A DNA stretch of 64,000 nucleotides from Escherichia phage JEP6. Under the pieces are notes generated by a model. It was not told the DNA's origin, did no database searches, and was given only the letters and a program-made list of their open reading frames with translations. Shown piece by piece: positions 7,197 to 38,482 of the stretch (its first letter is position 1; each line of letters begins with the position of its first letter). Location: sequence record MT764206.1; one strand, 5' to 3'. The position numbers and the translations under genes are program-made.

Positions 7197-8171
7197 TCAC
7201 TTCCACTGCATTTCGCATGCTAACTGAATGAAAAGATAAGCTAGATGCAATTCAGTATTAGCTGCAATACCATGATACTGATTATTTTCGCCGACAATTT
7301 CGTACATACGAATAATGCTCTGTGGAGTTACACGTGTATAGATTTCTTCGGCAAGTTTACCTACGAACCACGAATAATCAGCTGCATATTTTGGTGCTAA
7401 AGCTCTGAGCTGTTTAACATCTTTATTTTTGAGAGACTCAAGAACATCATCAATAGCACCACGATCGTTAGTAACCAGTGATAAAATACCAGCATCCAAA
7501 ACACCTTTAGATGAATAACTATCGAGCTCGCCAATAGTTTTACGAAAATCAGGAAAATTCTTTTTAACCAAAGCTGCTACAACTTTCATATCAGCTATAG
7601 CAATTCCTTCACGCTTGCAGATTTCAGTCAATCGACGAATCATCTGCTTCATCATTTCAATTTTATCTTCATCGGTCGGTTGACCGAATGTAATAACTCG
7701 GCAGCGTGACTGAAGTGGTTTAATAATACCATCAATATTGTTAGCAGTAATAATAATACTACAGTTTGAACTATAAGCTTCCATAAAGGAACGAAGATGT
7801 CGCTGAGACTCTGCTAACCCTGAACGGTCAAATTCATCAATAACGATTACTTTTTGACGACCATCAAATGAAGCTGCACTAGCAAAATTAGTCAAAGGAC
7901 CACGAACGAAATCAATTTTACAGTCTGATCCATTCACAAACATCATATCAGCATTTACATCATGGCACAATGCTTTTGCTACAGTTGTTTTACCTGTTCC
8001 TGGAGAAGGAGAATGAAGAATAATATGTGGAATCTTACCTTTACTTGTAATAGATTTAAAGGTTTCTTTATCAAAGGCGGGAAGAATACATTCATCGATA
8101 GTAGATGGACGATATTTCTGTTCAAGAATGTGTTCTTTTTCATTTACTGTAATCATAATTTCCTCATTCAA
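7197..8171 (-). CDS. 44: Clamp loader ATPase subunit (AAA+)
   Basis: Walker [11 protein letters not shown], Walker [12 protein letters not shown]-like motif. Confidence 0.93.
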
Positions 8172-8947: not shown

Positions 8948-9337
8948 TTAACGATTAAAATCAGCCGCAATTGTTTCCGCAATAATTTGAGCAGCAACAA
9001 TTAGACGTTCATCTGCATTACCGCAATAATCATCTTCAAGGCGTTCACCACATGAAGTCATAATAAATTTAGCACCAGCGTTTAGAGATTCTGTAGTATG
9101 TTTGCGCATTAGTTCAATCCATTTATTACTTACTTCACGATCGATAGCTTCATAATACGCATGACGAGCAGGTGCAGATTTAATTTTGTTCTGAATAACT
9201 TCCATTGCGTTATCAGAAAGAGACAAAACCCATGCTCGACGAATTTTATTTTGGTTTTGTGGATTTGATTCAGAACGCACGTGTTTTGGCTGAATATCTT
9301 TTACATCAACAGTATAATTCACAGTAATTTTAGTCAT
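8948..9337 (-). CDS. rpbA: RNA polymerase-binding protein RpbA
   Basis: 129 aa ORF directly upstream of gene 45, matching T4 order. Confidence 0.65.
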
Positions 9338-9346
9338 AATACACCT

Positions 9347-9535
9347 TTAGTCATAATAATCAGTAACAGTCCAAGCTTCATTTCTATTGGACATTATTTT
9401 TGTATATTCTGATTTAAATGCATTCCTAAGCATAGATTCAGTAACTATATGCTCTTCGTTAGAAAAATTATTTCTCAGAATATATCGTTTTATTTCAGGA
9501 ATAGTTAATAGATGCTGTCCAGTTGAATATTCCAT
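9347..9535 (-). CDS. Hypothetical protein (45.2 position)
   Basis: 62 aa ORF, tightly packed in the operon. Confidence 0.45.
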   Translation of the reverse strand: MEYSTGQHLLTIPEIKRYILRNNFSNEEHIVTESMLRNAFKSEYTKIMSNRNEAWTVTDYYD

Positions 9536-9590
9536 GTTTTTCCTCCATAGAGATTATACTCTAATAAATTAAAGCATAATCTCTTATAAA

Positions 9591-11273
9591 TTAAACCATT
9601 ACAGTAAATCGACCGACTTTCTTCATTTGAAGATGCTGACCATATTCTTGCGGGTCATGGTCTTTATGCGAAATTATAAAAACATTAGTGTTTTTCATTG
9701 AATTTATAATATTAGCTACACCTTTAATACCTTCGGCATCAAATGACCCATCAAACACTTCATCAAGAATTAATGTACTAATACTAACACCAGATACGAT
9801 AGAAGCAATATCACGCCAAGTAAATAAAAGAGCAATATCGATTCGTGCCTTTTCGCCTTCACTAAATGAAGCATAACTAAAATCTTCACGACCACGGGAT
9901 TTAATTGTCTCATTAAATTCTTCATCTAATGTAAACACATAATCCGCTTCCATTATTTTAAGATAATGGTTAATCTGCTTATTAAATAATGGAATGTACT
10001 TTTTAATAATAGCACCTTTAATACCAGAATCTTTGAGCATATCAGTCAAAATTCCTCGGTGGTATTTTTCCATTACTAAATTAGTTTTTGTCTTAACAAT
10101 TTTATCAAGTTCTTCTTGAAGCAGTGCTATTTCATCAGCATGGTCAATAAACTCAGAAGATGCTTTTTCTATAGCCGCTTTAACCTTTTTAGCTTTATCT
10201 ACTGCTGCGATCAGAGATTGCTTTTTATTGCGAATATCATTTGCCAACGACTGTTGGGTTTTAATATTATCTCGGTATTCATCAACAAGAACTTTTAAAT
10301 TATCACGGTGTGTTGAAAGCTGTTCAAACGAATGCGTACATTCAGAAACTTTATCTTTAATTTTAGAAACAACTTTATCACCGGAACTTAATTGTGACAA
10401 ACAGGTTGGACATAATCCACCTTCGTGATACATATTAATGACTTTATTATACGAGTCAATTTTTGATTTAATTAAAACTGCTTCTTGACCGATTTTATTA
10501 AATGCATCAGTCGGGTCTTCATCTAAAACAATATTAACTAATCTTTCGTTAGCTTCTTCTATTTCCGATTTTAGCGTTCTAGCTTCTTTTGCCAAATCAT
10601 CATACATATTTTGAAGACGAGTAAGATTGTCACCAGACAATTTTTTCTGGCGTTCAACATTATCGTTATATATTTTAATTTGTTGGATAATACTATCTTT
10701 TTTAACATCAAGCACTTGGTTTTGTGAGTTTAATTCACGTATTAGTGCTTTATTAAGCTTATCCATTTCAGCTAATGTTCCTACCTCAAGCAGGTCTTCC
10801 ACAAGCTTTCTTCGCGCAGGGGTCGACAAACCCATGAAAGGGGTATACCCTGCTGTACCAAGGACAACAATCTGCTTGAAACTGGCATATGACATTCCGA
10901 TAAGCTGTTCAAATTCTGCTTGGAAATCTTTACTGCTGGCAGATTCATTAAGACGTGTACCGTTAACGGTGATTTCGAAAACGTTTGGTTTTTGTCCTCT
11001 TTTGATATAGTACTTTTTCTCATCATATTCCATCCACAGTTCAACTAAAAGTTCTTTCTTATTTGTGCTGTTTATTAATTGACCTTTCTTTACATCACGA
11101 AATGGCTTGCCAAAAAGCCCAAATGTGATGGCTTCTAGCATAGTAGACTTACCACCGCCATTTCGTCCAGTAATAAGAGTTTTTTGAACCTTATCTAATT
11201 GAATGTCAATCCCATTTTGACCAACTGACATTATATTTTTATATTTTACTCTATTAAGTTTAAAATTCTTCAC
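9591..11273 (-). CDS. 46: Recombination endonuclease subunit (Rad50/SbcC-like ATPase)
   Basis: Walker A GRNGGGKST, long coiled coil with CPTC zinc hook, D-loop LILDEVFDG. Confidence 0.92.
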   Translation of the reverse strand: MKNFKLNRVKYKNIMSVGQNGIDIQLDKVQKTLITGRNGGGKSTMLEAITFGLFGKPFRDVKKGQLINSTNKKELLVELWMEYDEKKYYIKRGQKPNVFEITVNGTRLNESASSKDFQAEFEQLIGMSYASFKQIVVLGTAGYTPFMGLSTPARRKLVEDLLEVGTLAEMDKLNKALIRELNSQNQVLDVKKDSIIQQIKIYNDNVERQKKLSGDNLTRLQNMYDDLAKEARTLKSEIEEANERLVNIVLDEDPTDAFNKIGQEAVLIKSKIDSYNKVINMYHEGGLCPTCLSQLSSGDKVVSKIKDKVSECTHSFEQLSTHRDNLKVLVDEYRDNIKTQQSLANDIRNKKQSLIAAVDKAKKVKAAIEKASSEFIDHADEIALLQEELDKIVKTKTNLVMEKYHRGILTDMLKDSGIKGAIIKKYIPLFNKQINHYLKIMEADYVFTLDEEFNETIKSRGREDFSYASFSEGEKARIDIALLFTWRDIASIVSGVSISTLILDEVFDGSFDAEGIKGVANIINSMKNTNVFIISHKDHDPQEYGQHLQMKKVGRFTVMV

Positions 11274-32572: not shown

Positions 32573-33030
32573 TCAGCCTTATATTCAATAACAGGACACA
32601 CTTTAGCTTTACGAGCTTTTAAAAATTCAACGATAACCGATTTCTTGGGTTGAATAGGAGGTAAACCTTTATACGCCCTATCAATATTTTCTACGTGTAA
32701 AGCATAATCCTTTTTCCATTTATAATCTTTATATTTTTCACGCAAATGTGCAGGAATAACAAATGAACCAATAATAAGTAAAACAACCAAAAGCGCAAGT
32801 ATAAATGCTGATGGAATAAGAGTCCATAAACTACCAAAAATAAGCCAACGCTGTAGGCTTTCTGCACAGATGATAGTTAGACCTACGAGTATAGTACATC
32901 CGAAAAAAGAAACGAAAAATGTAGGAATGGCAATAGACCAAAAATATGCGCATAGTGTCTTAGGTCGTTGCCATTCATCGTTAAACAATTTGAATAATTT
33001 ATAGTGCCAAGAGTTTTCATTAATAATCAT
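32569..33030 (-). CDS. Membrane protein
   Basis: 153 aa with three predicted TM segments. Confidence 0.5.
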   Translation of the reverse strand: MIINENSWHYKLFKLFNDEWQRPKTLCAYFWSIAIPTFFVSFFGCTILVGLTIICAESLQRWLIFGSLWTLIPSAFILALLVVLLIIGSFVIPAHLREKYKDYKWKKDYALHVENIDRAYKGLPPIQPKKSVIVEFLKARKAKVCPVIEYKAE

Positions 33031-33032
33031 AA

Positions 33033-33251
33033 TTATCCTTTCATTGAAGGTGTAACAGTTGTTAAATACTTAATCATAGCTTCAGCTTCTGATTTTGATA
33101 ATGAAATTTCTCCATTGTTTTGACGAATAGAAATAAAATCCGGATGACGGTCACCACCGGCTTTTAAAACACACATATAAGTATCAGTTTCATCTTCAAT
33201 ATTTGAAATGATTGAAGCAGTTCCACACGAATGTGGTTTTTGATAAATCAA
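33033..33251 (-). CDS. Hypothetical protein (C-terminal SIRQ...YL..V.P.M motif family)
   Basis: 72 aa; C-terminus similar to the 33560-34114 product. Confidence 0.45.
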   Translation of the reverse strand: MIYQKPHSCGTASIISNIEDETDTYMCVLKAGGDRHPDFISIRQNNGEISLSKSEAEAMIKYLTTVTPSMKG

Positions 33252-33289
33252 TACAGCTTTTCTTCCACCATTTGACTGTTCATAAACTT

Positions 33290-33553
33290 TTAATACATCA
33301 ACAAATCACTTCTTTTATCAATAGCTAAAATGTTATTTTCATCTTCAATGTTAAATCCTTCGGATACTTCATAAAGTGTCACCCATAAATCACCTATATC
33401 GATAGTAGCATTTTCCTTTCCATGACTTTCAAGAGCATGACAAATTTTCTTAATTTCGTCATAACTCATTTTAATAATATCATCTCCTTGACTAAGAAAG
33501 ATGTCATTTTTAAATTCAACACGAATTAAACCGCTTCCACTTGAAATAAACAT
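33290..33553 (-). CDS. Hypothetical protein
   Basis: 87 aa ORF. Confidence 0.45.
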   Translation of the reverse strand: MFISSGSGLIRVEFKNDIFLSQGDDIIKMSYDEIKKICHALESHGKENATIDIGDLWVTLYEVSEGFNIEDENNILAIDKRSDLLMY

Positions 33554-33559
33554 ATTTCC

Positions 33560-34114
33560 TCACTTTGAAATCATAGTTGGAATAACAGAATCAAGATAAG
33601 TCTTTAACGCAATAGCTTCGTCTTTGTTTAATGTAATGATATGTGATCGAAAATCGTCAATTTGACGAATAGATACTACATCTCCTTCTTCATAGCATTT
33701 TGATACATTTAAAACAGTTTCATCATTCTGATTGCAAGCGTTAGTAATAATAGCATTGCAATTTTTGAGCCATTTTAAACTATGTTTTCTTTCATTAGAA
33801 TAATAAAAATATTTAATCTTAGCTATAAAACTATCCCAATGGATAACTGATAAACACATTGACTCACTTTCAATGTTAAATCCTGGGCATGAAGAATAAA
33901 AATGAATTTTGTGCTCATCATTGATGCTTACTATTTTATCAGCATAAGGATATTCAATTTGGGTTAAATGAATAATTTCACTAGGTGTAAAATACAGCAT
34001 ATCGTCTTCTTGCGTCAAACGATACATGTTATTTACTTTTTCTATAGCCAATTCACCAAAAAGCGGACTAACTTCTAATACTAATCGTTTCATATTAATC
34101 CTTTTTATTGGCAC
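33560..34114 (-). CDS. Hypothetical protein (SIRQ motif family)
   Basis: 184 aa; C-terminus VSIRQIDD...LKTYLDSVIPTM. Confidence 0.5.
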   Translation of the reverse strand: MPIKRINMKRLVLEVSPLFGELAIEKVNNMYRLTQEDDMLYFTPSEIIHLTQIEYPYADKIVSINDEHKIHFYSSCPGFNIESESMCLSVIHWDSFIAKIKYFYYSNERKHSLKWLKNCNAIITNACNQNDETVLNVSKCYEEGDVVSIRQIDDFRSHIITLNKDEAIALKTYLDSVIPTMISK

Positions 34115-34373
34115 GAATTTGTTCTAAAATTTTAGAATATTCCTTTGTATCAGATTTACGTACAATTGATACACTATAAGGCATACTATCGGTGTCTTTT
34201 ATAAAGCGTTCCAAATGACACTCTAACAAAATTTCTGGATTATAAATCGTGTACATCAAATTACCTGTTGCTCCACGATATTGGCAGATTTCTACTGATT
34301 GAACACCATTCCATAATTTTGTTAAAACTAAATCACCTACTTCTAATTTAGGAAAGCCCATGTTATTCACCAA
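34095..34373 (-). CDS. Hypothetical protein
   Basis: 92 aa ORF. Confidence 0.45.
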   Translation of the reverse strand: MVNNMGFPKLEVGDLVLTKLWNGVQSVEICQYRGATGNLMYTIYNPEILLECHLERFIKDTDSMPYSVSIVRKSDTKEYSKILEQIRANKKD

Positions 34374-34548
34374 TTAAAGTTTCAATATAAGAATCAAGAT
34401 TTACTTTAGCTTCTTCCATAAGAGTTTTGTATTTAATCTTGTTAGCATGTCCGGAGAAAGCTGATTCATCAATAATTGTTGATGTATGAACAGCTTTACT
34501 ATACGTCTCAATTAATTCTCTTAATTTAAAAGCCTGCTCACTTGTCAT
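34363..34548 (-). CDS. Small helical protein (EQ..K paralogue family)
   Basis: MTSEQAFKLRELIE... Confidence 0.45.
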   Translation of the reverse strand: MTSEQAFKLRELIETYSKAVHTSTIIDESAFSGHANKIKYKTLMEEAKVNLDSYIETLIGE

Positions 34549-34677
34549 TACATACTCCTTTGAATAATATCAATAATGTTGTTCACCAGATTATAAGTAA
34601 ACATTGGGTAATTATATTGAATCATCACATACACAACAAACAAAACTTTCATTCTCTTCTCCTTGGCAGTTGACAAG

Positions 34678-34710
34678 ATTACTATACCATAACCTTGCCA
34701 ACTTGTAAAC
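34678..34710 (-). promoter_or_regulatory. Early promoter cassette copy
   Basis: actatacca ... gtaaac. Confidence 0.45.
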
Positions 34711-34875
34711 CATTAAATGACGTTTTCAATAAAATTCTGAAGCTTTGTGTGAGCATCAACCATGATTTTCATTTCTTCTTTGGCGAAAGCTGTACCTCTT
34801 TCCCGAGAAGAACATTCATAGTCAGAAACTGCATTAGCATATTCTTCAATTAGCTTCATTAAAAACATCTGCTTT

Positions 34876-35070
34876 TCAGTTTTCATTATTCCACCTAATC
34901 ATTTCAAGATATTGGACTAACTTAGCTTTAGATTTATCCAAATCCTTTTTAGCTGCTTCTATACCGTCGTATGAATATCCTTCACAATGCTCAACTGCTA
35001 ATTGATATGAATCTATTTCAATATCATGCGCTAATTTAATGATTTTTTCAAACTGTTCGCGTGTTAGCAT
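34876..35070 (-). CDS. Small helical protein (EQ..K paralogue family)
   Basis: MLTREQFEKIIKLAHD... Confidence 0.45.
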   Translation of the reverse strand: MLTREQFEKIIKLAHDIEIDSYQLAVEHCEGYSYDGIEAAKKDLDKSKAKLVQYLEMIRWNNEN

Positions 35071-35072
35071 AC

Positions 35073-35291
35073 TTAAACTCTCGTATTATGATCGATAATT
35101 TCATCAAGAAACATATCTAACGCTTCTAAAGCATTATCAACTTTAGCTTCAAATTCTTCAATACCTGATAAGGCAAAGTTAATGCGTTCCTCATCTGCTT
35201 TGCGAATTAAATCTACCAATTCTTTAATTTTATCCGCTTGTTCGATACTAATCATTATTCCACCACATATGAAAGAGAGAATATTGCACAC
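35073..35291 (-). CDS. Small helical protein (EQ..K paralogue family)
   Basis: ...[16 protein letters not shown]... Confidence 0.45.
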
Positions 35292-35443
35292 GCCATGTGA
35301 GTTGCAGCTTCATCACACATATCATAACGTTTCTTAAGAAGTTCTACAAGTTCTTCACTAGTGACTTCATCCATGTCGACGAAAAAATCACCATTAATGA
35401 TGACGTAGATATTTCCTTCTTGATTAAGTGCTTCAATTTTCAT
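35255..35443 (-). CDS. Small hypothetical protein
   Basis: ATG at 35443 downstream of the promoter; the track start at 35488 is TTG and lies inside the promoter. Confidence 0.4.
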
Positions 35444-35470
35444 GATGTTCTCCTCTTTATCCGATGGTTG

Positions 35471-35501
35471 TATAGTACCACGGCTCAAACGGAAAGTAAA
35501 C
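35471..35501 (-). promoter_or_regulatory. Early promoter cassette copy
   Basis: tatagtacca ... gtaaac. Confidence 0.55.
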
Positions 35502-35517
35502 CGGTAAAATGAAAAAA

Positions 35518-35533
35518 GTCTCCCGAAGGAGAC
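35518..35533 (-). terminator. C(UUCG)G hairpin
   Basis: gtctcccgaaggagac. Confidence 0.55.
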
Positions 35534-35538
35534 TAATG

Positions 35539-35925
35539 TTATTCGAGGGAAAGAAGATACTTACTCTGGTAAAACATTCCAGTAATATCATCTATCGTGC
35601 TTTGGATGGCTGGAGGCATTTCTTTATAAATGCTGTTAGATTGGTCTAGTATGCGATCAATCATTTTAATTGTGTCGGTAGGAAGTTTACTAGCATCTGG
35701 AATTGAAGGTGTGTATTTTCTACCAGAATACCCCAAATATTGCTCACCAAATTTATCAATCAAATCTGGCAACTCGGAGAAAATAAAATCGTATGCTTTG
35801 TGTCTAGCATAACTTTTAGTTTCAAAATGTGCAGAATGAAAATAAGCTTGTGCAGCCATTAATAAACCTAAGTATTCATCTGCCTTTGAAGGTTTTCCAC
35901 TTTGTGAAAAGTCGCTGAATTTCAT
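35539..35925 (-). CDS. Hypothetical protein (rI.-1 position)
   Basis: 128 aa ORF immediately downstream of rI. Confidence 0.5.
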
Positions 35926-36215
35926 TCAGTCTCCAATTTAATGTTCATAATTCTAGCGTATGATTGTGCCATCTCCGCGCCTCGTTCTATACATTCAAAA
36001 TCAGAAGAGCACGGGTCATTTTTATAGGTCGTTCTCATAAAACTATAGAATTGTTCAGACGATTCTACGCTTTTATTTTCAAAAAGCATATAAACGTGCC
36101 TAATACCAGATTCCATAAATTTATCAAAATGAGGATCGACATTCGCTTCAATCGATGGAGATAAAACAAATGACAATCCTAGCATGGCAAATAGTGTCGT
36201 TGCTTTTAAGGCCAT
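35922..36215 (-). CDS. rI: Lysis inhibition antiholin RI
   Basis: 97 aa MALKATTLFAMLGLSFVLSPSIEANVDPHFDKF... with signal-anchor and periplasmic domain. Confidence 0.9.
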   Translation of the reverse strand: MALKATTLFAMLGLSFVLSPSIEANVDPHFDKFMESGIRHVYMLFENKSVESSEQFYSFMRTTYKNDPCSSDFECIERGAEMAQSYARIMNIKLETE

Positions 36216-36227
36216 AAAGGCCTCCTA

Positions 36228-36440
36228 TCATTTTTGCCCTGTATTTACTTTATGCCGATGCACGGCCTTAACTTTATCAAGGTATTTTTCAAAATTTCGC
36301 AATCTAGTATAGTCTGCCGGAGATTGGTTGAGTGATACTTCTCGACGCAAAGCTGAAATGATATTTCCAACTTCCCTACGAATTTCATCTAATTGAAGAA
36401 CGGTAAGATTGCGAAGTTGCTTTTCAGTTAATTGTAGCAT
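36228..36440 (-). CDS. Hypothetical protein (rI.1 position)
   Basis: 70 aa ORF. Confidence 0.5.
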
Positions 36441-36465
36441 ATATACCCCTTTAGTTAGATAAACC

Positions 36466-36473
36466 TATTTATA
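36466..36473 (-). promoter_or_regulatory. Late promoter TATAAATA
   Basis: Plus strand tatttata, 26 nt upstream of the ATG at 36440. Confidence 0.45.
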
Positions 36474-36482
36474 ACTTTTGCA

Positions 36483-37064
36483 CTAACCGAGCTTTTTAGT
36501 TAATTCATTCCAATGTTTTCTACACAAAGAAACATAAATTTCATCACCAATACAGATTTGATTACCTTCTTTAACTGGTGTTCCATCTTCCATTAATCGA
36601 GCTGTCATAATAGCTTTTTTACCACAATGACAAACTGCCTTTAGTTCAATAAGTTTATCTGCAATCGCCAAAAGTTCTTTAGAACCTTCAAATAATTTTC
36701 CAGCGAAATCAGTCCTTAGCCCATAAGCCATAACAGGAACATTATATGTATCAACAATTCGACTTAATTGATGCACCTGTTCAGTTTTTAAAAACTGAGC
36801 TTCATCTACAAATACACAATGAATATCTTTTTGTGCTTCAGCCCATTTATAGAACTCAAAAATATCCATATCATCCGTAATAATATTCGCTTCCTGCTTA
36901 ATTCCAATGCGAGAAACGACTTCACAGACAGAATCGCGAGTATCAATAGCAGGCTTAAGAACTAATACACCCATTCCGCGTTCTTTATAATTATGTGCAG
37001 CAGTCAAAAGAGAAGCAGATTTTCCAGCATTCATTGCTGCGTAAGTAAAAATTAAACTCGCCAT
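36483..37064 (-). CDS. tk: Thymidine kinase
   Basis: P-loop AMNAGKS; Zn site CHCGKK...CRKH; 193 aa. Confidence 0.93.
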   Translation of the reverse strand: MASLIFTYAAMNAGKSASLLTAAHNYKERGMGVLVLKPAIDTRDSVCEVVSRIGIKQEANIITDDMDIFEFYKWAEAQKDIHCVFVDEAQFLKTEQVHQLSRIVDTYNVPVMAYGLRTDFAGKLFEGSKELLAIADKLIELKAVCHCGKKAIMTARLMEDGTPVKEGNQICIGDEIYVSLCRKHWNELTKKLG

Positions 37065-37065
37065 C

Positions 37066-37254
37066 TTAGTCCTTAGTTAAATTTTCTAAATATGTTTTTA
37101 AATCATTTTCAGCTTTATCGATAGATTTTACTAATTCGTAATATGTTTCGGCATCTCCATATTCAGAAGATATTTCAAAAGACAAATCCTTTTCTAAACT
37201 AATAATTTCACCAACTAAAAATAATATTTCGTTCTTTTGTTCGCGAGTAATCAT
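37066..37254 (-). CDS. Small helical protein (EQ..K paralogue family)
   Basis: MITREQKNEILFLVGEI... Confidence 0.5.
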   Translation of the reverse strand: MITREQKNEILFLVGEIISLEKDLSFEISSEYGDAETYYELVKSIDKAENDLKTYLENLTKD

Positions 37255-37436
37255 AAGGAATTTATATAATCAATAAGTTCTTGTTCTTTATTATCGAATT
37301 CTTTAGAAAGTTCTTCGTACTCGTTTGCACTAAAAGGACCGCATTCATTACAAACTTTTTCCAATTCACTATTTTTATCCATAACTTCGTGGATAAGAGA
37401 AAAGAGTTTGTCTTTTTGTTCTTTGCTTAGGCTCAT
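37251..37436 (-). CDS. Small helical protein (EQ..K paralogue family)
   Basis: MSLSKEQKDKLFSLIHEV... Confidence 0.5.
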   Translation of the reverse strand: MSLSKEQKDKLFSLIHEVMDKNSELEKVCNECGPFSANEYEELSKEFDNKEQELIDYINSL

Positions 37437-37602
37437 ATATTAATTTCCAGAAGTTTTAAAATAATTCGCTTTTGCTTAAATATTTCCATAGTTAAATGAT
37501 CAGTATCTTTTTGGCCAATTCCAATGGCAAAACCTTTATTAGCAGCGAGTTCAATTAAATTATCAAGTTCACGTGACACTTCATATTGTAACTCAGAACT
37601 AT

Positions 37603-37815
37603 TCATTTCGGTTTACCTTCTTTAACGAAATCTGGATAAGGATAAAATCCCGAATAAAATCCTTCACCTTTATGATTGATGCATCCTTTATTAGAACAAT
37701 AGCACCAATAATCGAAATCACAAGCCATTTCATCGTTGCATAAAGCAAAAACAACTGGCCATTTACACTTTTCACAATGGGCATTTTTAAGAATACTAGT
37801 TTGGCTCATAACCAT
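37603..37815 (-). CDS. Cys-rich small protein
   Basis: CEKCKW...C..DEMAC...CYCSNKGC; 70 aa. Confidence 0.45.
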   Translation of the reverse strand: MVMSQTSILKNAHCEKCKWPVVFALCNDEMACDFDYWCYCSNKGCINHKGEGFYSGFYPYPDFVKEGKPK

Positions 37816-38033
37816 GTAACCTTTAAGCAGTATTCTTCTACATGCTGTTTACGACCTTTCTTATCAATAAAGGTATATTCAACGAATGTTCCAATGTAGT
37901 CTTTATCTACATCATGCGGACTATTAATTGGACATTTAGTACGGCAAATGCGTTCCCATTGACGAATAATTACTGCCTTATTCTTTGGGTCATATGGATG
38001 TGGATAATGTATATTCATAATAATGGTTCCCAA
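37806..38033 (-). CDS. Hypothetical protein
   Basis: 75 aa ORF. Confidence 0.45.
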   Translation of the reverse strand: MGTIIMNIHYPHPYDPKNKAVIIRQWERICRTKCPINSPHDVDKDYIGTFVEYTFIDKKGRKQHVEEYCLKVTWL

Positions 38034-38482
38034 TCAACAATCACAATTTCTAATTTAGAGGAATATGTATCTAAAATCCCCTCAATAATATCCCAGTTCC
38101 CTTTACCTATGCCTGCACCAATCCTAGGCATATAGATTGTAGGTTTAATCAGTTTATTTTCACCAAACTCATTTAATTCTAACATACAATTCATTAAAGC
38201 GAAATACTCAAAATTTGGCCCTGGTTGAAATTGAGTATAAAGATTAAAGCAGTAAGCTTTATGAGTCCTAAAGTATTTTTCATAGACTGAATAAGAACCA
38301 AGTTTAGTTACATCACCCCATTCAGTCTGTAGTTTATCAGCTTCCAGAATTTTAGGGAAAGCTTTGGTTAATTGACCTGCGACTCCAGCTTTCATCGTAT
38401 GAAAACAATTGCATCCATGCGCAATATTTTTACCTTCAGCGAAAAGGGCGACAATATCGCCCTTGATATATTTTACAATCAT
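38015..38482 (-). CDS. Macrodomain protein (TARG1/DarG-like ADP-ribose hydrolase fold)
   Basis: GDIVALFAEGKNIAHGCNC...AGVAGQL and YMPRIGAGIGKGNW resemble the TARG1/C6orf130 motifs (SLAHC...GAGIA; MPRIGCGLD). Confidence 0.6.
   Translation of the reverse strand: MIVKYIKGDIVALFAEGKNIAHGCNCFHTMKAGVAGQLTKAFPKILEADKLQTEWGDVTKLGSYSVYEKYFRTHKAYCFNLYTQFQPGPNFEYFALMNCMLELNEFGENKLIKPTIYMPRIGAGIGKGNWDIIEGILDTYSSKLEIVIVDWEPLL

Follow-up and report, generated by a model that had tools for sequence, protein, structure and literature searches.

We find that two families of small paralogous genes lie within 4.4 kb of the genome of Escherichia phage JEP6, between positions 33,033 and 37,436 of the 64,000-nucleotide (nt) stretch of sequence record MT764206.1 that was analysed (hereafter the window). 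The first family consists of six genes for proteins of about 60 amino acids (aa) with the Pfam domain DUF7438 (PF24219), and the second of mobD.1 (y05I) and a tandem paralogue that is interrupted by a frameshift. We are close to certain that both are real, already catalogued accessory genes of the T-even phages, which are early, dispensable and lineage-restricted. Neither relationship is new, as Pfam, PHROGs and the annotations of phages RB14 and T6 already record both, and the present analysis mainly confirms and tidies existing annotation. A first-pass annotation, made by a model from the letters of the window alone, had proposed two families of paralogues scattered around the genes rI and tk. 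Shuffled controls, hidden Markov models (HMMs) and Pfam matches bear this out, with three amendments: the first family has a sixth member that was overlooked, one of the ORFs (open reading frames) assigned to the second is a frameshift fragment, and the second family is not helical.

Six paralogous DUF7438 genes

All seven ORFs named in the first-pass annotation are present on the minus strand. Five of these had been grouped as family 1, and all five are homologous; mobD.2a (34713–34886) has to be added to them. Coordinates such as 34363–34548 stand, but mobD.4 starts at ATG 35255 and not at GTG 35291, in agreement with the T4 annotation (183 nt), and its M-I-S-I-E-Q then begins at residue 1. 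The six genes are listed below, where E is the expect value of the match to PF24219, pI the isoelectric point, z the pairwise score relative to shuffled sequences, and pN/pS the ratio of non-synonymous to synonymous polymorphism.

37251–37436, minus strand: tk.2, 61 aa, pI 4.4; E 6e-19; 98% identical to T4 tk.2
37066–37254, minus strand: tk.1, 62 aa, pI 4.3; E 7e-15; z 9.3 against tk.2
35073–35255, minus strand: mobD.4, 60 aa from ATG 35255; E 2e-13
34876–35070, minus strand: mobD.3, 64 aa; E 3e-18; pN/pS 0.07; in 585 phage records
34713–34886, minus strand: mobD.2a, 57 aa; E 4e-15; pN/pS 0.07
34363–34548, minus strand: RB14ncORF101c-like DUF7438 gene (name from the RB14 annotation), 61 aa; E 1e-15

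Their lengths, 57–64 aa as stand-alone proteins, are those expected of the family (~57–67 aa), and the matches cover positions 1–56 or 1–57 of the 57-position Pfam model. The window ORFs are 95–100% identical to the same-named genes of RB14, T4 and T6 (for T4 these are tk.1, tk.2, mobD.3, mobD.4 and mobD.2a), and we see no material difference from the known DUF7438 set; the window, like RB14, has the maximal six copies. PHROGs divides the six members into phrog_653, phrog_2758 and phrog_4859. The terminal motifs proposed for the family, M-x-[ST]-x-EQ-x-x-K-[IL] at the N-terminus and Y-[LI]-[EN]-x-[LI] at the C-terminus, fit approximately but not literally: tk.1 has E for the K of the motif, and mobD.4 ends in F-L-D-E-I.

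As these are short, low-complexity proteins with pairwise identities of just 19–33%, one could argue that they resemble each other only as A/T-rich, helix-prone ORFs do by chance, and the nearby rI.1 and ORF110c also score weakly against members of the family (z about 3.5). Chance resemblance has, however, been refuted by shuffling, by Pfam and by leave-one-out tests, and we give it practically no weight. Smith-Waterman scores were compared with those of 300 residue shuffles, and none of the 300 reached the observed score; z-scores were 9.3 (tk.1/tk.2), 8.4 (mobD.3/tk.2), 6.4 (mobD.3/tk.1), 5.6 (mobD.2a/101c-like gene), 5.2 (101c/mobD.4) and 4.6 (mobD.3/mobD.4). An HMM built from any five members ranks the sixth first when set against 908 further ORFs from all six frames of this A/T-rich 64-kb window, with E of 2e-5 to 2e-3 for the member and at least 0.06 for the best non-member. 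All six ORFs match DUF7438 at 50.8–68.6 bits (E 2e-13 to 6e-19), against a gathering cutoff of 25 bits. Positional orthologues in other genera and pN/pS values well below 1, described below, speak against chance as well.

No seventh member was found in the 64-kb window with a profile built from all six. Three neighbours, rI.1, ORF110c and mobD.5, were considered and rejected, having no Pfam DUF7438 match and z ≤ 3.7 to any member. The rI.1 protein (36228–36440, 70 aa, basic, pI 10.2) begins M-L-Q-L-T-E-K-Q-L, superficially resembling the N-terminal motif, and scores E 5.4 with the family HMM. ORF110c (37433–37606) is a 57-aa ORF with no detectable membership of the family.

A predicted two-helix hairpin

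An AlphaFold2 model of tk.2, built as a monomer from a 32-sequence family alignment and the single DUF7438 structure modelled, is a hairpin of two antiparallel helices (residues 5–30 and 37–60; mean predicted local distance difference test score, pLDDT, 90.6), in keeping with the earlier description of family 1 as small and helical. In the column statistics of the family alignment M1, [ILM]3, T/S4, E6 and Q7 are near-invariant. Helix 1 has hydrophobic columns at 11, 14, 15, 18, 21 and 25, helix 2 at 40, 43, 47, 50, 54, 57, 58 and 61; the pattern is a/d, supplemented towards the termini by an 'e' position. As the helix begins straight after the conserved T/S, the simplest reading of the N-terminal M-[IL]-[TS]-x-E-Q on the model is a helix N-cap with a hydrophobic staple, and an S/D/G/T column directly before helix 2 resembles a second N-cap. 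The C-terminal [YF]-[LIV]-[END]-x-[LI] would be the last core turn of helix 2, so that the two terminal motifs should lie together at the open end of the hairpin.

Outside the core there is little that is shared. The loop, its length and the solvent-facing positions vary among the paralogues, and among polar positions conservation is essentially limited to the N-cap residues and an acidic residue close to the C-terminus; an Asp in helix 2 is less strongly conserved. Each of the six is an acidic protein, the net charge being −8 to −9 for tk.1, tk.2 and mobD.4 and −2 to −4 for the other three. The mobD.4 proteins of the window and of T4 have some 7–8 inter-helix loop residues fewer than those of RB14, ECML-134 and phiD1, an indel confined to the variable loop.

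Copy number and selection in T4-like phages

When 1.84 billion cluster representatives were searched exhaustively with a profile, 32 DUF7438 clusters came up at E ≤ 1e-3, and 31 of the 32 are proteins of 38–76 aa, mostly about 60 aa. In an indexed search, the named matches come from T4-like phages or from assemblies labelled 'bacterial' with phage-sized contigs of 165–171 kb. As far as these sequence searches go, DUF7438 is a lineage-restricted family. One metagenomic protein of 936 aa (P0113, 79 bits) was set aside as a repeat artefact or a case of convergence with first-helix matches only; it consists in part of 15 tandem 24-aa repeats (LSSEQRSTLTELLHTIES; LSSEQRSTLTELLHTIESTSETT), each resembling the first DUF7438 helix alone. 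A distant member (P0126) lies on short unannotated contigs, and its genomic context was uninformative.

In eight annotated genomes, the window included, the copy number across the block from nrdC.11 to tk.4 ranges from 3 to 6: six in the window and in RB14, five in phiD1, four in ECML-134, four intact plus a split mobD.2a in T4 (AF158101.6), and three each in Dhakavirus VR5, Mosigvirus WFL6982 and Gaprivervirus RZ. Among 40 T4-like loci from IMG/VR anchored on tk, 0 to 5 copies lie within ±5 kb, and the most persistent slot is the one directly upstream of tk. Genes of the tk.2, mobD.3, mobD.2a and mobD.4 types, assigned by best match, occupy corresponding positions in Dhaka-, Mosig- and Gaprivervirus with 42–67% identity, and because of these positional orthologues we conclude that the duplications predate these genera.

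Comparison of the window with nine Tequatrovirus loci gave a pN/pS of 0.07 for both mobD.3 and mobD.2a, 0.21 for 101c and 0.35–0.40 for mobD.4 and tk.2, next to 0.02 for tk and 0.36 for tk.4. Judged by these ratios, the DUF7438 copies are constrained coding genes, with purifying selection acting on several of them. There was no sign of positive selection in pN/pS; the ratio of 2.3 for tk.1 is not meaningful, as it comes from a handful of substitutions at a pS of 0.007.

The tk.2 gene exists in two allele classes, a T4-type that is at least 80% identical in 168 phage records and a form of about 55% identity in 573 records. At the same threshold of at least 80% identity tk.1 is found in exactly 168 phage records, and in ten Tequatrovirus loci it is present only alongside T4-type tk.2, with flanking DNA that is about 95% identical. 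Given the equal record counts and the co-occurrence in these ten loci, tk.2 and tk.1 behave as one cassette.

To go by their sequences, two database proteins seem to have arisen when tandem paralogues recombined unequally: P0082 is a 50-aa chimera of the N-terminal half of tk.2 and the C-terminal half of tk.1, and P0154 joins the N-terminal part of mobD.1 to a C-terminal part of the ORF097c type. In the T4 record AF158101.6, mobD.2a (locus positions 7540–7721) is split in two frames and annotated as 38 aa, while the T4 annotation in the HIDEN-SEQ study has an intact mobD.2a of 174 nt. The split may be a reference error or a mutation specific to one stock.

A two-domain gene, mobD.1, and its interrupted copy

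The second family comprises three features in the window:

33560–34093, minus strand: mobD.1 (y05I), 177 aa from ATG 34093, with T4_y05I_N and T4_y05I_C
33290–33553, minus strand: N-terminal fragment of a mobD.1 paralogue (RB32ORF097c-like), 87 aa; T4_y05I_N, E 1.8e-29, 102.7 bits
33033–33251, minus strand: C-terminal fragment of the same paralogue, a 72-aa ORF with a TTG start; T4_y05I_C, E 8e-22, 77.8 bits

The first-pass annotation had paired the ORF at 33033–33251 with the C-terminal block of mobD.1. The homology is real (z 7.8, with T4_y05I_C matches of about 1e-21 in both), but it spans the whole length of the two genes. In mobD.1, T4_y05I_N (PF24449; 132.2 bits, E 1e-38) covers residues 11–107 and T4_y05I_C (PF24448; 77.5 bits, E 1e-21) residues 112–181 of the 184-aa ORF, and the two domains thus stand in N-to-C order on one polypeptide. 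In the second copy (33033–33553) both domains are present but in different frames. Pfam describes these domains as a 'y05I-like putative transcription factor' (T4 MobD.1); mobD.1 has both, whereas the fragments of the paralogue have one each. Because the N-terminal fragment matches T4_y05I_N, we take the family to be a tandem pair of full-length paralogues, of which one is broken in the window, and the ORF at 33033–33251 is not a separate member but a frameshift fragment of a 173-aa paralogue. An alignment of 33020–33570 places a 1-nt deletion relative to RB14 near 33300 (GATTTGCTTGATG to GATTTG-TTGATG). The ORF097c gene is intact in vB_Eco-B1.1, T6 and RB14 (173 aa; 522 nt in vB_Eco-B1.1 and T6), in contrast to the split gene in the window, and the frameshift is either a real pseudogene mutation or a sequencing error. 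The RB14 annotation of ORF097c already reads 'similar to mobD.1'. Between mobD.1 and the ORF097c-type paralogue the C-domain is 38–41% identical and the N-terminal part 22–23%.

The proteins of this family had been described as small and helical, which they are not: at about 175 aa they are rich in beta-strands, with three beta4-alpha units in the AlphaFold2 model of mobD.1 (15 sequences). The N-domain (residues 1–100, pLDDT about 90) is modelled as beta4-alpha, beta4-alpha, and these units I and II have, in the prediction, a PC4/PUR/Whirly-like fold. In a review of PC4-like folds, Pur-alpha combines an intramolecular domain of repeats I and II with a dimerising repeat III (PMC7549692). By analogy with Pur-alpha, the shared SIRQ...EA.A...YL...P.M block would be the last strand and helix of a predicted third repeat that may pair two chains.

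What the proteins may do

T4 is the best-studied large lytic phage, and roughly half of its genes are without an assigned function. Both families are packed into one short stretch beside the proven anti-defence genes tk.4/AdfM and nrdC.1. If a target were demonstrated for the hairpin family, this would define a new class of small phage effectors and show that single-gene screens miss effectors that are present in redundant copies.

According to a time-resolved omics study of T4 (PMC9697503), mobD.1, mobD.3 and mobD.4 are early as transcripts and as proteins, tk.1 and tk.2 are early as transcripts and middle as proteins, and mobD.2a has an early transcript with no protein class assigned. Transposon mapping in T4 classes mobD.1–.5, tk.1 and tk.2 as non-essential (bioRxiv 2025.11.20.689424), and a genome-reduction study deleted nrdC.11–mobD.3 (PMC9825161). 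In the HIDEN-SEQ study, tk.4 is AdfM, an anti-DarTG2 protein and the sole DarTG2 hit, and nrdC.1 inhibits Septu. These two genes, tk.4 coding for a macrodomain protein, are like the DUF7438 and y05I genes early, non-essential, variable and located in the same genome arm; they differ in having unrelated folds and a demonstrated conditional phenotype, none being reported for the DUF7438 and y05I genes in these screens or in the transposon mapping. A literature search by the name 'DUF7438' found no publication, and tk.1, tk.2 and mobD.1–.5 turned up in passing mentions or supplementary tables only. Emp of Mosigvirus is an unrelated protein of 109 aa.

Early expression, dispensability, acidity, variable copy number and anti-defence neighbours are consistent with a candidate inhibitor or adaptor role. 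We suggest that the DUF7438 proteins, acidic hairpins of about 60 aa, would pair into four-helix bundles, as is usual for hairpins of such size, and act as small dimeric protein-binding modulators of host proteins in host takeover or counter-defence, each paralogue drawing its specificity from its own variable surface. In early infection, the probable task of MobD.1 and its tandem paralogue is to bind single-stranded nucleic acid or to provide a scaffold, and unit III would serve for homo- or heterodimerisation in the manner of Pur-alpha repeat III. Taken as a whole, the combination of two families, hairpin modulators and MobD.1 as a binder has in our view an even chance of being right, while the proposed mode of action is put forward tentatively and we lean somewhat against it. 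A bolder version would make the DUF7438 proteins modular hairpin effectors that form homo- or heterodimeric bundles, tk.2 and tk.1 maybe as an obligate pair, each neutralising a different host defence or housekeeping protein and masked by redundancy in single-gene screens; this we consider unlikely.

A number of observations count against the proposed functions. For DUF7438, the literature and structure searches found no target, phenotype, binding partner or informative structural relative. The HIDEN-SEQ defence screens described in the main text of that study report no DUF7438 gene among their hits, and one comparison table of the supplement gives q = 1.0 for these genes; redundancy among 4–6 paralogues could hide effects in such screens. 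A Foldseek search of the PDB with the tk.2 model gave generic hairpins alone (DHD127, CsoR/FrmR and Rop; best E 0.28, none at E ≤ 0.001), and the same model retrieved from BFVD uncharacterised proteins of other T4-like phages, again none at E ≤ 0.001. Pairing of the hairpins is something that we infer. Purifying selection is strong on mobD.3 and mobD.2a, as one would sooner expect with a conserved target than in a rapid arms race. For MobD.1, the third beta/alpha unit is modelled with low confidence (pLDDT <50), and units I and III match weakly in hhalign (E 0.003, probability 10%). A Pfam scan at E ≤ 1 found just T4_y05I_N and T4_y05I_C and no PUR or Whirly domain, and a PDB profile search found nothing below E 0.29. 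The N-domain is acidic (charge −6, pI 5.0), which is unusual for a nucleic-acid binder, and this charge favours a different role for the PC4/Whirly-like fold of MobD.1/y05I, namely a protein-binding scaffold or chaperone that does not bind nucleic acid; we regard that as rather improbable, if a serious contender.

For the hairpins there are two further alternatives. They could serve the phage's own machinery, as adaptors or regulators of proteins of nucleotide metabolism or replication. A DUF7438 gene lies immediately upstream of tk in most loci with a Tk at least 68% identical, tk.1 carries the ribosome-binding site of tk, a conserved phage partner would go well with the strong purifying selection seen for mobD.3 and mobD.2a, and PHROG 4859 bears the label 'helicase loader', which has been propagated to the phiD1 annotation. 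Synteny with tk says little, however, because gene order is conserved throughout T4-like genomes, and there are more distant T4-like phages with tk but no copy near it. In T4 every copy is non-essential, and the mobD block can be deleted. Nor do Pfam or structure searches lend support to the label: the 101c-like ORF, which matches phrog_4859 ('helicase loader'), matches DUF7438 alone above the Pfam cutoff, and neither the Foldseek/PDB search with the tk.2 model nor the DUF7438 profile search of PDB sequences, which returned nothing below E 0.07, revealed a specific relationship to helicase loaders. We hold a role in phage machinery to be quite unlikely. Less probable again, and in our opinion very improbable, is a role in nucleic-acid transactions, with the hairpins either binding RNA as four-helix bundles like Rop or mimicking DNA. 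The antiparallel two-helix hairpin of about 60 aa and the a/d(/e) pattern of DUF7438 are also features of Rop (repressor of primer, from ColE1) and of designed dimers of helical hairpins such as DHD127, with template modelling (TM) scores of 0.78–0.88. The 63-aa hairpin dimer Rop is among the structural matches (TM 0.83–0.88, rank 45), and the strongly acidic tk.1, tk.2 and mobD.4 could mimic DNA. There is, on the other hand, no sequence relationship to the acidic, phage-restricted DUF7438 proteins (E 0.28–3.4), the Foldseek E of 3.4 for Rop is no better than that of designed hairpins, net negative charge speaks against direct RNA binding, the other three members are just mildly acidic, and the column statistics show no conserved charged surface. 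We favor small protein-binding modulators over both alternatives.

The surrounding locus

Over 5.5 kb around both families the DNA is 96–97% identical to Escherichia phages vB_Eco-B1.1, T6, wV7 and RB14, and the gene order is that of the RB14/T6 map gene for gene, all on the minus strand, as in a Tequatrovirus genome: nrdC.11 - RB32ORF096c - RB32ORF097c - mobD.1 - ncORF100c - ncORF101c - mobD.2 - mobD.2a - mobD.3 - mobD.4 - mobD.5 - rI.-1 - rI - rI.1 - tk - tk.1 - tk.2 - RB32ORF110c - RB32ORF111c - tk.3 - tk.4 - vs. Three segments are without counterpart in the T4 locus (101c with ncORF100c, ORF110c with ORF111c, and ORF097c with ORF096c), and T4 has mobD at the ORF097c/ORF096c position; the remaining differences from T4 come from whole-gene stretches.

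The DUF7438 genes form two tightly packed runs, tk.2-tk.1 upstream of tk, and mobD.4-mobD.3-mobD.2a with the 101c-like gene downstream of rI.-1. An ATGA overlap joins the start of tk.2 to the stop codon of the ORF upstream, another one joins tk.1 to tk.2, and the ribosome-binding site of tk lies within the 3′-end of tk.1. While mobD.2a and mobD.3 overlap by 11 nt, the other junctions are ATGA or TAATG, with starts within a few bases of the preceding stops. Such overlapping or near-adjacent frames suggest translational coupling. Two promoter-like elements precede genes of the second run:

35472–35501, minus strand: early-promoter-like element, GTTTAC, 18 nt, TGGTACTAT; read from the sequence, below the scan threshold
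34681–34709, minus strand: sigma-70/early-promoter-like element, TTTACA, 17 nt, TG-TATAGT; precedes mobD.2 and the 101c-like gene

The former lies upstream of the mobD.5-mobD.4-mobD.3-mobD.2a run, just past the rI.-1 terminator hairpin (35517–35534), and from the T4 early-promoter consensus we presume it to be an early promoter. The latter is the best promoter-like match in the region (10/12, with an extended −10 TG).

Among the neighbouring genes, the ncORF100c-like gene (34095–34361, 88 aa) matches the Pfam 'Phage tudor domain' (PF24144, E 2e-40), and the segment 34092–34536, which does not align to the T4 locus, carries this Phage_tudor gene together with the 101c-like DUF7438 gene. The RB32ORF111c-like gene (37603–37809, 68 aa, Cys-rich), which is absent from T4, matches the Pfam 'Phage zinc binding domain' (PF23895, E 2e-29). 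The macrodomain gene tk.4 (38015–38482; Pfam Macro) is found some 0.6 kb upstream of tk.2. Its alleles in Tequatrovirus loci fall into two divergent classes, with a minimum aa identity of 57% and a pN/pS of 0.36. In Dhakavirus VR5 a putative homing endonuclease gene (locus positions 9193–9930) stands between the tk.2-like DUF7438 gene and tk, and in T4 the mobD homing endonuclease adjoins mobD.1, so that the clusters of paralogues lie next to sites of endonuclease insertion.

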